Program-made: the position numbers and the translations under genes
Notes under the pieces: model-generated
The model's input: only the letters and a program-made list of their open reading frames with translations
Told to the model about the DNA's origin: nothing
Database searches by the model: none
Shown: piece by piece, positions 6,545-49,430 of the stretch
Layout of the letters: each line of letters starts with the position of its first letter
How positions within the stretch are numbered: the first letter of the stretch is position 1
NCBI GenBank assembly: GCA_951406725.2
Contig: OX597837.1
Coordinates: 11,284,001 to 11,348,000, forward strand
Direction: 5' to 3'
From: Octopus vulgaris
Taxonomy: Eukaryota
DNA: 64,000 bases

Positions 6545-8067
6545 TGTTTCTTTATTAGCCACACAGGGCTGCACACAGATAGGACAAATTACAAGGTAGA
6601 GCTTTTCTTTTGAAGGGTTAGAAAAAAAAAAAAAAAAAAAAGGAAGGGGGAGTTTCGATCAAAAGGGATCGTAAAAGGAGAGAAAGAGGACAAAAAAAGG
6701 GGGGGTTAAAAAAAGGGGGGAGGAAAAAAAATTGATCAATAGGGATCGTTATCACAGAAATGTCAATATGAAGTGTAAAGGGGAGGACAGGTGAGGTTTA
6801 CCCGTGGAAAGAAAAGCCTACGGAAAAGACCACGGTAACCTCGGTCAATGAAGTCACATTTTATATTTCTTTTTTTTTTTTTTTGCAAATAAGCAACTCT
6901 CTGTTTTCGATTTCTGGGTTCATAGGACTATGCTCAAGGTGGCTTCGTCATTCATACGTGCCATTCTTGCTACATTCACCCATCTTTTTTTAAAACATTC
7001 GCTAGACAAAACTTGCCTCTCTACTCTCACTTTCCTTTTCAAGTGGTACTTGAAGAAGTTGATGAGAGATTGACCAGAGAGGAAAGTGTTTGTCTCCAAT
7101 CCTTTCAGACGCGTCCACCAGATACATTCTTTCGCCATAGCCACAAGGATGATGAAAATAGATCTTCCTTCCCGTTTGAAGGAAGGAGGCGTGACAATAT
7201 TGACGATAGACTCAGCTGATAAACCGACTCGTCCCACACGTGACAGCAGTTGTTCGACACAAGCCCACAGGTCGGAAATTGTTGGACACTGAACGAGTGC
7301 GTGCAGAACGGTTTCGTCGCTCTGACCGCATCTCGGGCAGGTCGGCCCCGTGTTTCTCGAGCCGTGTCTGTAGAGCTTATCCCGAACGGGTAGCGCTTCT
7401 CGGTAGCACTGCCAGGCCAGGGATCTCTGGAAGTTGTCCATGGGCCCTGGCCCGAAAGTCGTCCTGAACAGGCGGGTCAGGTACTCCTCGTCGACGTCCA
7501 GGTTCGCCCCGAGCTCGTCGTCGTACCTCCCCTCCACTAAACCCCTATAGAATGCTTTGGTTGTGTTGAAGTCACTTAAGGTCGACCCAGGACGGCAGAG
7601 TTGCTTGAGAGCAACGCGACACTCGCGGTGCCATTCGCCCTTCCTCGGCCTCTTTTTGATCCACGACTGCAGTTCGGTCATGGAGACGAGCTGCGGGAAA
7701 GCGTGCCTCACAAACGGCGACCACACCTGTTCACCGTCGTCTACATAGAGCCAGAGATGTCGCAGTCTCAGCGCGTGTCTGCGCATCATCAACCACGGCA
7801 TGCCCAGCCCTCCTTTTAACGGGTGTTGACAGCAAATGGATCGCCTGACCATCGGGACGCATCCTTTCCACAAAAAGCGAAAGAGGATGCGTTGTAGTTT
7901 GGTGATGGTAGGGTCGGGACAAGGTACGACGGTCAGGCGGTAGTAGATGACGGACGCGATGTACGTGTTCGCCACCTCCGCTCGACCTTTTAGGGACAGT
8001 TTCCTCTCGGCCCATTGCCGGGCGAGAGTGACCACCCTACTCGTTATCTCGTTCCAGTTCTTCTCCA
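6545..8067 (-). mobile_element. 5'-truncated Tx1/L1-clade non-LTR retrotransposon in a (GATA)n array
   Basis: GC-rich island flanked by (GATA)n on both sides; ORF2 tail, 3' UTR and AATAAA signal. Confidence 0.92.
6920..8035 (-). CDS. Tx1/L1 ORF2 C-terminal fragment (post-RT region and zf-RVT zinc knuckle)
   Basis: W..RKLSLKGR, FLW, GGLG, WQCYREALPVRDKL and CPRC..ETVLHALVQC motifs typical of L1/Tx1 ORF2; the frame stays open up to the 5' truncation at about 8067. Confidence 0.9.
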   Translation of the reverse strand: MVTLARQWAERKLSLKGRAEVANTYIASVIYYRLTVVPCPDPTITKLQRILFRFLWKGCVPMVRRSICCQHPLKGGLGMPWLMMRRHALRLRHLWLYVDDGEQVWSPFVRHAFPQLVSMTELQSWIKKRPRKGEWHRECRVALKQLCRPGSTLSDFNTTKAFYRGLVEGRYDDELGANLDVDEEYLTRLFRTTFGPGPMDNFQRSLAWQCYREALPVRDKLYRHGSRNTGPTCPRCGQSDETVLHALVQCPTISDLWACVEQLLSRVGRVGLSAESIVNIVTPPSFKREGRSIFIILVAMAKECIWWTRLKGLETNTFLSGQSLINFFKYHLKRKVRVERQVLSSECFKKRWVNVARMARMNDEATLSIVL

Positions 8068-35569: not shown

Positions 35570-36460
35570 TCTGTTCGTGTCTATGGCATGACTGGATGAG
35601 CTTCCTCCATACTGGTCGCTTTCTAACTTGAGTTTGCCATTTATTATGATCAATCTGATCATTATGATCAGGAGTGGCTGTGTGGTAAGTAGCTTGTTTA
35701 CCAACCACACGGTCCCGGGTTCAGTCCCACTGCGTGACACCTTGGGCAAGTGTCTTCTACTATATAGCCTCGGGCTGACCAAAGCCTTGTGAGTGGATTT
35801 GGTAGACGGAAACTGAAAGAAGCCCATCGTATATATGTATATATATATATATTTCTTTACTACCCACAAGGGGCTAAACACAGAGGAGACAAACAAGGAC
35901 AGACAAACGGATTAAGTCGATTACATCAACCCCAGTGCGTAACTGGTACTTAAGTTATCGACCCCGAAAGGATGAAAGGCAAAGTCGACCTCGACGGAAT
36001 TTGAACTCAGAACGTAACAGCAGACAAAATACGGCTACGCATTTCGCCCGGCGTGCTAACGTTTCTGCCAGCTCGCCGCATATGTGTGTGTGTGTGCATG
36101 TATGTTTGTGTGTTTGTGTTTGTCCCCCTAGCATCGCTTGACAACCGATGCTGGTGTGTTTATGTCCCCGTCGCTTAGCGGTTCGGCAAAAGAGACCGAT
36201 AGAATAAGTACTGGGCTTACACTGAATAAGTCCCGGGGTCGAGTTGATCGACTAAAAAGGAGGTGCTCCAGCATGGCCGCAGTCAAATAACTGAAACAAG
36301 TAAAAGAGTAAAAGAGAGTAAAGAGAGTAACTCCTTCCCACTTCGTATTCCGTTATGCAGTATCTTTGAATCTCAGTCTAGGTCCTCCCCGGTTTCTTTT
36401 CCCCCTGCATGGTTGGGCGTATAGGGTTTTGTCTGGGGCGTCTGCCTGTTGTTGTGCATC
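35570..36460 (-). mobile_element. RTE-clade LINE 3' fragment interrupted by nested SINEs
   Basis: Minus strand PDKTLYAQ..GKRNRGGPRLRFKDTA (36330-36450) continues at 35655 as [11 protein letters not shown]; related fragment at 37372-37470(+). Confidence 0.7.
35669..36328 (+). mobile_element. SINE family A containing an inverted SINE family B (35851-36078)
   Basis: Family B sits in the internal (TA)n tract of family A. Confidence 0.88.
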
Positions 36461-36683
36461 CTGTGTACCTCACGTAATTCCTATCCACGAGGAACTTAGG
36501 CAGAACAGAACGCTGTAGGATCTTTTCGTTCCCGAACTAGTCAAAGAGAGTGATATTCATAATTCGTCGCTGCTGCCTCATTATTTATATATGAAACTTG
36601 CCTACTTGGACTTTATAGGCCGTCAAATTTTCAGCGCTATGCCCTCGTGTACCGAATATTTCACACATATTCTTGATAAATTA

Positions 36684-37052
36684 CGGAGGTGTACTCGCAT
36701 AGCAAGTGATTTGATCTGAGATCGTGTGCTGGAACGAAAACAATTGCAGCGTGGAAGGTGTTAGTAAGCCATTTAAGAAACACACAAAAGCCGTTCGATT
36801 CACTGCAACATTTAAGTTTAATTTGTCAAAATATTTTCGTCGCTAAAATCCGCGACGTGTTCACTGACAAAGTCCGTGCTGCATCTCGATTAACATGCAT
36901 CGTAGAGATGCAGCACGGATTTTTGTCAGTGAACACGTCGCGGATTTTAGCGACGAAAATATTTTGACAAATTAAACTTAAATGTTGAAGTGAATCGAAC
37001 GGCTTTTGTGTGTTTCTTAAATGGCTTACTAACACCTTCCACGCTGCAATTG
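36684..37052. mobile_element. Palindromic insertion with 13-bp target-site duplication (Penelope-like inverted pseudo-LTR)
   Basis: Arms 36740-36887/36905-37053; TCTTGATAAATTA at 36671-36683 and 37053-37065. Confidence 0.85.
36922..36971 (+). ncRNA. Hammerhead motif with G3:C8 swapped core (mirror copy 36822-36871 minus)
   Basis: TTTGTCA-GTGAACA-C-GTCGC-GGATTTTA-GCGAC-GAAA-ATAT-TT-TGACAAA. Confidence 0.65.
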
Positions 37053-37606
37053 TCTTGATAAATTATACAACCACAATATCACTAATGTCTGGTGGCGCTG
37101 AAGTGTCAATTTATCGAAGGTCGCCGCTCCAGACCTTTCCATAAACAGGAAGAATAGTCCATAACATGTTAATAAATGTTATTTAACAATTTCCTTAGCC
37201 TACAACTGTGTCTGCTACTTTAAAATGTGCACACTGTGTTAAGTGTGATGTCTTGTAGCTTCCTGAGAGCCATTCGAATGACGATTTCATATATATGTTT
37301 GCTTCTCTCAGTATATATATATTTGCCATACGCATATATTGCTGGTTTAGAGAAGTGCCAAATCGTATAGTATAGACTAAGATCCAAAGATATTGCAAAC
37401 AGGAATATGGAGTGGGAAGGAATTGATCATAATAAGTGGCAAACTCAAGTGGGAAAGCGACAGGCATGGGGAAAATTTATATATACGCATACACACATAC
37501 ACACACACGCACATACATACATACATACATACATACATACATACACACATATATATATTCATACATACATACATAGATACATACATACATACATACATAC
37601 ATATAC

Positions 37607-46789: not shown

Positions 46790-49430
46790 TAATAGAAACT
46801 TCATTATAAACCTCAGTCAATTGTTAGGTTTTCTTAGACTAATCAAAAGCCTCTATCCAATCAAAAGTACTGCAGCTGCTCAAAATATACGAATGACAGG
46901 GTTTCCAACTCAATTTCGACATCGTCAGCTTTAATCTCAAATTAGCAATCGTCTGTCTCAAATTCGACATCGTCTGCTTTAATCTCAAATTAGCAATCGT
47001 CTGTCTCAAATTCGACATCGTCTGCTTTAATCTCAAATTAGCAATCGTCTGTCTCAAATTCGTCATCGTCTGCTTTAATCTCAAATTAGCAATCGTCTGT
47101 CTCAAATTCGACATCGTCAGCTTTAATCTCAAATTAGCAATCGACTGTCTCAAATTCGACATCGTCTGCTTTAATCTCAAATTAGCAATCGTCTGTCTCA
47201 AATTCGACATCGTCAGCTTTAATCTCAAATTAGCAATCGTCTGTCTCAAATTCGACATCGTCAGCTTTAATCTCAAATTAGCAATCGTCTGCTTTAATCT
47301 CAAATTAGCGTTCGTCTGTCTCAAATTCGACATCGTCTGCTTTAATCTCAAATTAGCGATCGTCTGTCTCAAATTCGACATCGTCTGCTTTAATCTCAAA
47401 TTAGCAATCGTCTGTCTCAAATTCGACATCGTCAGCTTTAATCTCAAATTAGCGATCGTCTGCTTTAATCTCAAATTAGCAATCGTCTGTCTCAAATTCG
47501 ACATCGTCAGCTTTAATCTCAAATTAGCAATCGTCTGCTTTAATCTCAAATTAGCGTTCGTCTGTCTCAAATTCGACATCGTCTGCTTTAATCTCAAATT
47601 AGCGATCGTCTGCTTTAATCTCAAATTAGCAATCGTCTGTCTCAAATTCGACATCGTCTGCTTTAATCTCAAATTAGCAATCGTCTGTCTCAAATTCGAC
47701 ATCGTCTGCTTTAATCTCAAATTAGCAATCGTCTGTCTCAAATTCGACATCGTCAGCTTTAATATCAAATTAGCAATCGTCTGTCTCAAATTCGACATCG
47801 TCAGCCTTAATCTCAAATTAGCAATCGTCTGTCTCAAATTCGACATCGTCAGCTTTAATCTCAAATTAGCAATCGTCTGTCTCAAATTCGACATCGTCTG
47901 CTTTAATCTCAAATTAGCAATCGTCTGTCTCAAATTCGACATCGTCTGCTTTAATCTCAAATTAGCGTTCGTCTGTCTCAAATTCGACATCGTCTGCTTT
48001 AATCTCAAATTAGCAATCGTCTGTCTCAAATTCGACATCGTCAGCTTTAATCTCAAATTAGCAATCGTCTGTCTCAAATTAGCAATCGTCTGTCTCAAAT
48101 TCGACATCGTCTGCTTTAATCTCAAATTAGCAATCGTCTGTCTCAAATTCGACATCGTCTGCTTTAATCTCAAATTAGCGTTCGTCTGTCTCAAATTCGA
48201 CATCGTCTGCTTTAATCTCAAATTAGCGATCGTCTGTCTCAAATTCGACATCGTCTGCTTTAATCTCAAATTAGCGTTCGTCTGTCTCAAATTCGACATC
48301 GTCTGCTTTAATCTCAAATTAGCGATCGTCTGTCTCAAATTTGACATCGTCTGCTTTAATCTCAAATTAGCGATCGTCTGTCTCAAATTCGTTATTGTCA
48401 GCTTCAGTTTACATATCGTCAATCTCCGTTACTTGACATGATTTATCATGATTTCCTCACCGTTAAGTTTCATTTCGTCATCATAAATTTAAATATTGTC
48501 ACTGTAGGACGGACCGAATTTTATTTTTATTTGGTTTTTATGATTAAACATCGACACCAGTGGTTAAGTGTCCCCTAATTGTAAAAAAAGTGTAAATATT
48601 AAGTTGTTTTATAAAGGATTACAAGTTTTCTATAATAAAAAGGTTTTTCTCAGTCATCCTCATTACTTCTCTAAAGTGTTCTGCTGCTCAAAACACAAGG
48701 CGTCACCTGGTTCAGGAATCGAAACCACAATCTTAGGATTATGAGTTCAACACCCTAACTACTAAGCCACGCGCCTCCACAATATTCGGTCTTAATAACT
48801 TCAAATTCATTATAAAACATAATCATTTAGAAGGTTTACTTAGACCAGTCGAAAGCCTCTCTCCTAATATAAATATAGCAGGCTGCTGAAATATACAAAT
48901 GCGCCTTTAAAATTACAAGATTTCCCGTTTAGATTCGATCCTGTCATCCTCATACTCGTCTACGTCAACCTCAAATTCGTCATCGTCTGATTAAATTCCC
49001 TTATTGTTTGTACCTATTACGTTGTCATCCATCGCGATTTCCCAATCGTCAACTTTAATTCCGTCATAATTCAGTTGACTACTGTTATTGTAGGACAGAG
49101 CGAGTCTAATAATTTTTAAGAACAGACATTCACATCAGTAATTCTTTGTCACAGAATTGTAAAAGAAATTATATATTAAAAAGTTTCGTAACGGATAACA
49201 AGTTTTGCATAATATAATTCCTTTCTTAATTACAATAATTTTTCTTATCGGCAGTTTTGATACGTTACTGTCTCTCTCGATTTCGTTATCATCAAATTAG
49301 ATATCGTCAGTGAAGGATGGTATGAATTTTATTGCGTTCTTTTATTATGAACAGACAATAACATCAGTGATTATTTGTCGCAGAATTGTACGTGAATGTA
49401 AACATTAAAAAGTTTGAACAATAGAATTTG
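46790..49430 (-). repeat. Diverged tandem triplication of an acidic-heptad-repeat module
   Basis: Copies ~46790-48640, 48790-49225, 49255-49430 share TGTAGGAC/TGAAGGAT..ACA(T/C)CAGT..AATTGTA..ATTAA; copies 1 and 2 also share TAGAC..AAAGCCTCT..GCTGCT..AATATAC. Confidence 0.75.
46909..48400. repeat. 48-bp minisatellite built from 21-bp and 27-bp subunits (about 30 units)
   Basis: Unit AATTCGACATCGTCTGCTTTAATCTCAAATTAGCAATCGTCTGTCTCA; highly homogeneous; yields the 527-aa ORF 46839-48422(-). Confidence 0.95.

Follow-up and report, generated by a model that had tools for sequence, protein, structure and literature searches.

A probable Penelope-like end-pair insertion in Octopus vulgaris with a G3:C8 hammerhead motif in both arms

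Penelope-like elements (PLEs) are the closest described counterparts of the locus analysed here. In Adineta vaga, PLE insertions consist of inverted, head-to-head pseudo-LTRs (pLTRs) with an optional tail on one of them and a target-site duplication (TSD) of 8–10 bp, and the first codons of the open reading frame (ORF) lie in pLTR and tail (PMC3846280, Arkhipova 2013); the same layout with tails of 30–40 bp is described in PMC8557442. For PAc, a Poseidon PLE of Anolis carolinensis, the protein has been characterised: at AT-rich sites it cleaves both strands and extends them, and two start sites of reverse transcription (RT) define the tail (Frangieh 2024, PMC11167929). The pLTRs of PLEs contain minimal hammerhead ribozymes, pairs of which lie on opposite strands 100–700 bp apart and which share a conserved extra base between A9 and G10.1, a G10.1:C11.1 pair, GAAA, a short palindromic stem III and an NUH cleavage triplet with frequent U17 (Cervera and de la Pena 2014, PMC4209133). 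In D. virilis Penelope, the intron ends at helix I of the ribozyme (PMC4209133). PLE minimal hammerheads cleave poorly (PMC4209133, PMC11167929); that of PAc depended on protein, and insertion in vitro did not require its cleavage (PMC11167929).

The core of these ribozymes includes a pair between positions 3 and 8, which is normally C3:G8. The sole natural covariation of this pair reported in the sources consulted is U3:A8 (Perreault 2011, PMC3088659), found also in Schistosoma Cercyon PLEs (PMC4209133); in one of these instances the covariation extends over about 1,300 PLE-related motifs (PMC3088659, PMC4209133). The inverted pair, G3:C8, has been made in the laboratory, where the double change restores part of the activity to hammerheads in general (PMC8495972) and, as C3G/G8C, to that of PAc (PMC11167929). 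A further report, given as ‘data not shown’, is that G17 makes G3-C8 more active than C17 does (PMC3884650). For an octopus genome, recently active Penelope families have been listed, in a description whose main text mentions no ribozymes (PMC13282606).

Here we analyse a 395-base insertion in a 64-kb stretch of microsatellite-rich Octopus vulgaris DNA, referred to below as the window, in which an inverted pair of arms lies inside an exact 13-bp duplication (Table 1). At the local composition, an exact 13-mer match at a given place is expected by chance with a probability of about 7e-8. The arms differ by two mismatches and one indel (2.0% divergence) and are arranged head-to-head, with their sense strands pointing outward. 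A reading made from the sequence alone had recognised the near-identical arms of about 148 bp and the exact TSD, and both descriptions hold; all of the parts that it listed are present, but it missed the extra C at 36936, the tail and the placement of the two motifs on opposite strands. The tail makes the insertion asymmetric, and it is a part of the repeat family, with a summed contig depth above 1 million compared with 19–56 in the adjoining flank bin. The final 4 nt of the left TSD can be aligned in many family contigs, so that they may reflect target preference or microhomology. The fold-back in the spacer is possibly a snap-back or template-switch scar. No further copy of the unit occurs elsewhere within the window.

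Table 1. Features of the insertion, in positions of the window
Feature	Position	Strand	Description
Insertion	36671..37065		inverted arm pair inside TSD
TSD, left copy	36671..36683	.	13 bp, AT-rich, exact match to right copy
Tail, one-sided	36684..36740	-	57 nt; 3' extension of sense unit; belongs to family (contig depth)
Left arm, putative pLTR	36741..36887	-	147 nt; sense is minus strand
Minimal type I hammerhead, left arm (mirror copy)	36822..36871	-	G3 36864, C8 36859; predicted cut between 36829 and 36828
Spacer	36888..36904	.	17 nt; carries short fold-back copy of arm start
Right arm, putative pLTR	36905..37052	+	148 nt, without tail; sense is plus strand
Minimal type I hammerhead, right arm	36922..36971	+	descriptor match; G3:C8 core
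Right-arm stem I	36922-36928/36965-36971	+	7 bp
Right-arm core	36929, 36934, 36935	+	G3, C8 and A9
Right-arm extra C	36936	+	between A9 and G10.1 (stem II)
Right-arm stem II	36937-36941/36950-36954	+	5 bp, G10.1:C11.1
Right-arm GAAA	36955-36958	+	
Right-arm stem III	36958-36963	+	palindrome AAUAUU
Right-arm U17	36964	+	
Possible ORF start	37021..37052	+	ATG 37021; about 10 codons in arm, 29 with tail; weak, no protein match
TSD, right copy	37053..37065	.	13 bp, exact

The insertion has the head-to-head pLTR-like arms, the one-sided tail, the AT-rich TSD and the hammerhead inside the arm, here with a variant core, that are known from PLEs. Although the sequence-only reading treated the palindromic insertion as odd, its layout is thus a described PLE structure. 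Compared with the A. vaga insertions, two ends are present without an internal ORF, the TSD is 13 rather than 8–10 bp long and the tail is 57 rather than 31 nt (PMC3846280); tail and TSD also exceed the 30–40 nt and 8–10 bp of published PLEs. With PAc it shares a pLTR hammerhead, an AT-rich target and a tail of the kind that arises from two RT starts, and the distance of 88 nt from the predicted cut to the arm end falls within the 85–92 nt that separate, by subtraction, the cut from the RT start in the anole element (PMC11167929); the present tail is longer, and the swap is natural here, whereas PAc has a C3:G8 core. The single ORF of endonuclease-bearing (EN+) PLEs, which encodes a telomerase-like RT and a GIY-YIG endonuclease, is not found in the studied short copy, and none could be linked to the family. 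A 53-codon open frame on the minus strand had no match in a protein search, the ESM Atlas or Pfam, and a 47-codon frame had none in Pfam. The frame that opens at ATG 37021 resembles the 12 codons in the pLTR and 22 with the tail of the Adineta element (PMC3846280). In the studied copy its fourth codon is a stop, and 99.8% of the depth in one run (X2, see below) has another letter there; three other listed differences change amino acids or are of CpG type, which weakens the ORF reading. Taken together, these comparisons make it likely, with high confidence, that the insertion is a PLE end pair of ordinary layout; by itself it is an ordinary-looking PLE remnant.

Several other repeats surround it. 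A SINE-like dispersed repeat at 35675–36340, with more than 30 blastn matches in the window, is presumably an abundant octopus SINE, and the left flank holds two further multi-copy, diverged repeats (36340–36435 and 36500–36627; depth 200–5,500 in runs X2 and X4). On the minus strand, a 425-codon open frame at 6923–8197 matches zf-RVT (E 4e-8) and is probably a LINE ORF2 fragment. A long minisatellite-like stretch at 46842–48438 is open for more than 500 codons on both strands; its Pfam matches are to four mixed families, with no stretch passing by itself.

The anatomy of the hammerhead in the sequence-only reading, with its 7-bp stem I, core, 5-bp stem II, GAAA and AAUAUU, was borne out in both arms. 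A descriptor that admits any Watson-Crick 3:8 pair matches at just two places in the 64 kb, with G3 at 36929 (+) and 36864 (-). When the unit was subjected to 40,000 dinucleotide shuffles and both strands were scanned, nine of the 80,000 strands passed a loose descriptor, and none did so with a palindromic stem III or at the stringency of the real motif. The motif has the U4, G5, A6 and A9 of the PLE consensus, the extra base, G10.1:C11.1, G12, A13 and A14, A15.1:U16.1, the palindromic stem III and H17, so that every feature of the published consensus fits except positions 3 and 8. With G3 and C8, the literal core CUGANGA is not matched, and we therefore class the motif as a variant, not as an ordinary PLE minimal hammerhead; a Watson-Crick 3:8 pair is present in both arms. 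The prediction that standard CUGANGA searches would miss it agrees with the lack of any Rfam hammerhead match at the gathering threshold in the 64 kb, but either the swap or the minimal shape may account for the miss. At E values up to 10, Rfam gave ten matches, all to hairpin-type models and none to a hammerhead. Terminator-like predictions in the unit were rejected, as they correspond to stem II itself. The stem III palindrome extends to 10 nt (36956–36965), including A13, A14, U17 and U1.1, with -3.8 kcal/mol as a duplex; on this folding estimate, it could favour dimer capture or misfolding.

How unusual is the swapped pair? In a hand count of the published alignment of PLE hammerheads (PMC4209133 supplement), 53 of the 56 sequences have C3, three have U3 and none has G3, although the descriptor behind that alignment was built on the canonical core and so could not directly retrieve G3. 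The same 56 sequences include 24 with U17, one of them with UUU, and 11 in which the extra base is C. The natural U3:A8 covariants are compensatory at the 3:8 pair, as G3:C8 would be; they require two transitions, after which position 3 is still a pyrimidine and position 8 still a purine, as opposed to two transversions that invert the pair (PMC3088659, PMC4209133). Viral contigs served as a control. With the first type of stem II, 128 of 130 matches (126 loci) in 16 of the 64 parts of the collection had C3:G8, 108 of them with both other stems, whereas the whole collection yielded four G3/C8 matches, none with the other stems, and two U3/A8 matches, one with them. With the second stem type, a full fold was found at 99 of 125 canonical loci (3 of 64 parts scanned) and at 1 of 120 G3/C8 loci (43 of 64 parts), where about 0.5 are expected by chance; altogether, one of the 124 G3/C8 motif loci in phage contigs had a full fold. 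This one, on the minus strand of phage contig L174 (match 61–90), looks like a complete type I hammerhead, has G3:C8, C17 and a stem II of 7 bp, and may be genuine. Another phage motif (L133, match 41–68, +) has a U3:A8 core with both flanking stems. The family pattern itself had no match in the viral contigs or in GTDB genomes, and blastn of the element against phages returned none. Its single metagenome match was rejected as chance, having A3/C8, no fold and a position inside a long bacterial ORF, which we take to resemble a 2-oxoglutarate dehydrogenase. In a literature search that was not exhaustive and drew partly on excerpts, no report of a natural G3:C8 hammerhead was found, and the pair was met as a laboratory rescue mutant only. 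To reach it, two transversions have to pass through nearly dead single mutants; should it cleave, the octopus motif would be a rare natural counterpart of this laboratory-made variant.

The two arms belong to a repeat family of very high copy number in animal DNA. Of 24 listed public runs, four were compared with the element. Contigs of three of them matched it at a likeness of at least 80% (7,983 in X2, 11,038 in X4 and 420 in X17); X2 and X4 are DNA runs, whereas X17 may be RNA. The one run of raw reads, X22, gave no matching read and carries no weight either way. Summed depth is 26 (X2) and 42 (X4) over the right flank and up to 1.9 million (X2) and 3.3 million (X4) within the element; the ensuing ratios of 2e4 to 9e4 mean ‘very many’ only and are not copy numbers. 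Most family contigs are 90–95% alike to the element, with 979 of the 7,983 in X2 at 99% or above. A 5'-truncation gradient suggested by the depth was rejected, as clipping at the divergent loop II shortens the contigs. The majority of the loose ends before 36949 reads G3 U G A A C8 A; a G follows, and after it comes an unchanged stem II, closed by a 9-nt loop of other sequence. These loose ends stem from 63, 68 and 7 contigs in X2, X4 and X17, respectively (agreement 0.74, 0.74 and 0.87), and have median lengths of 13, 21 and 27 letters, such that only part are long enough for G3. As G3 and C8 are the majority in all three runs, the swap is family-wide, and the expectation that GTGAACA is the family consensus was confirmed, apart from differences in the extra base and loop II. 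About 99% of the family depth has G at 36936, so the C of the studied copy is a minority letter.

Among the 40 of 101 difference rows listed, none concerns 36929 or 36934. Both C>G places in X17 are listed (36389 and 36936), which puts a change of C8 to G below 3% in this run. In X2 and in X4, a single C>G is left unassigned, and so is a single G>C when the mirror of 36936 is included; since full reversion seen in both arms would need two of each, a canonical C3:G8 subfamily above 3% of the family is unlikely. The majority differences listed include none in the core or stems; they fall in loop II, at the extra base, at five downstream places and at three places of the tail. This retention of core and stems while other places changed is suggestive, short of a covariation test. 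No C3:G8 sister subfamily was seen in the family contigs (40 of 101 difference rows listed); hence there is no covariation within the family, and conservation within an expanded family can be plain descent. Overall, we are confident that the family carries a real G3:C8 minimal hammerhead motif.

The family contigs also delimit the unit. Loose ends before 36680 (45 contigs in X2, 43 in X4) are heterogeneous and AT-rich, as are those before 36743 (11 contigs in X4); the two family termini, at about 36680 and 36743, match the tail end and the arm end of the studied insertion. At the other side, loose ends before 36906 (43 contigs in X4, 6 in X17; agreement 0.49 and 0.62) have low-agreement majorities with a branch-point-like CTAAC, a pyrimidine tract and AG directly upstream of the right-arm start. 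Its likeness to an intron end and its place ahead of stem I recall D. virilis Penelope (PMC4209133). Both arms and many family joints begin at about 36905–36913. Seven of the 15 joints listed (of 115) connect variable left-arm or tail positions to 36905–36912, so that inversions seem to recur; joints in repeats need caution.

Contigs of X2 bridge both junctions, reaching 36 and 53 letters inside, and X2 could be the source sample. X4 has another organism code and is 2.2% different over two pieces; its contigs enter the element by 26 and 18 letters, fewer than the 31-letter threshold asks for, yet match both ends, and this approximately 2%-divergent sample seems to carry the insertion. A single flat contig covers the right flank in X2 and in X4, and no empty-site joint occurs among the 15 of 115 joints listed. 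The insertion had been called young and recently mobile. The 2.0% divergence of the arms accords with this view, but the joints listed and the flank contigs that enter the element in both DNA runs do not: the insertion is recent in a loose sense, and polymorphism is not supported by the joints listed.

Would the motif cleave? Rescue by the engineered swap, to which the sequence-only reading appealed, is known but partial (PMC11167929, PMC8495972). The same reading singled out the UUU triplet as a mark of slow cleavage; yet U17 occurs in 24 of the 56 sequences of the published alignment, once as UUU, and the triplet is nothing special (PMC4209133). The greater activity of G3-C8 with G17 than with C17 is consistent with a mispairing trap between positions 3 and 17 (PMC3884650); by analogy, U17 may ease a G3-C17 trap, and UUU thus need not mean a crippled ribozyme. 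Nor can the two arms dimerise in cis. Their motifs lie on opposite strands, so that a read-through transcript, with one motif and its complement, is predicted to fold into a long hairpin of about -270 kcal/mol (-272 or -266 in the folding model). In a model of the motif alone, the extra C at 36936 of the studied copy pairs with G12 (P=0.98), and the 6-bp stem III duplex is worth -0.2 kcal/mol only. As C is the extra base of published PLE hammerheads too, it need not be fatal (PMC4209133). On these models cleavage at the studied locus is unlikely, and with the arms paired to each other the genomic copy would be silent when read through. For the G3:C8 hammerhead of the family type, we would predict activity with a confidence a little better than even.

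The account that we prefer, and consider reasonably probable, is that a PLE made this end-pair insertion and that the G3:C8 motif of its family keeps weak self-cleavage, assisted by dimerisation or by protein. By analogy to the anole PLE, the protein would have cut both strands of an AT-rich site, and reverse transcription would have begun once at the distal site, giving the tailed arm, and once at the proximal site, giving the tailless one. Uncut RNA would have been copied through the ribozyme, with copying stopped near the intron end, and the two cDNAs joined at the 17-nt spacer. The swap would be compensatory in that it keeps the 3:8 tertiary pair, and U17 would avoid the G3-C17 trap. A more demanding form of this account, in which a very successful animal PLE lineage has fixed the inverted pair, U17 being a companion change, and has a ribozyme that is predicted still to cleave, is in our view possible and on balance doubtful.

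The main competitor is a PLE remnant whose G3:C8 hammerhead is catalytically silent, its fold being kept by descent or as an element that serves the PLE protein in binding or folding, such that loss of cleavage costs nothing. Cleavage of the PAc ribozyme is dispensable for insertion in vitro, and no read in the anole RNA-seq data, as described, ends at the cut site (PMC11167929); Naiads reach huge copy numbers without canonical hammerheads (PMC8557442). Both arms, moreover, appear to have been copied through the predicted cut site, so that the template would have been uncut or religated, rescue by G3:C8 is incomplete (PMC11167929, PMC8495972), and phage contigs very rarely show a full G3:C8 fold. 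Against silence, the two transversions fall exactly at the paired positions 3 and 8, while G10.1:C11.1, the stem III palindrome and all other core positions are intact and loop II has turned over, a pattern hard to explain without selection on catalytic geometry. We consider a silent ribozyme unlikely, if far from negligible. Much less probable is a non-autonomous retrozyme- or SINE-like element that lacks a coding master, is mobilised in trans by PLE proteins and uses its ribozyme to process tandem or circular RNA. The very high abundance and the absence of a detected ORF are in keeping with it, as is the proposal that animal retrozymes are PLE derivatives (bioRxiv 10.64898/2026.07.22.740005). 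The head-to-tail tandem hammerhead units of non-LTR retrozymes are, however, absent at this locus, which has two inverted copies only; the motif, extra base included, belongs to the minimal PLE type, the family sequence extends upstream into the intron-end-like motif, and the family letter keeps the frame open from the ATG near the arm end. The long, near-perfect inverted arms and the target duplication would also suit a fold-back or MITE-type DNA transposon with a hammerhead likeness by chance. Such elements have inverted repeats at both termini beside the TSD, whereas here the left arm begins 57 nt of tail away from the left TSD; in other family contigs, left-arm positions that vary are joined to 36905–36912, and the motif withstands the comparison with shuffled strands (0 of 80,000) and is located where PLEs carry hammerheads. 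A DNA transposon is, accordingly, the least probable of these origins, and a very improbable one.

The preferred account, of a PLE family that keeps a weakly active G3:C8 ribozyme, bears on how such ribozymes are found. The G3:C8 family marks a blind spot of descriptor-based ribozyme surveys: if a lineage has indeed fixed a cleaving G3:C8 core, many thousands of hammerheads in its host would escape CUGANGA searches, and swapped cores may exist in some of the PLE families that are at present regarded as ribozyme-less. As a natural family of many copies, it also lends itself to asking whether selection on PLE hammerheads acts on catalysis or on shape alone.
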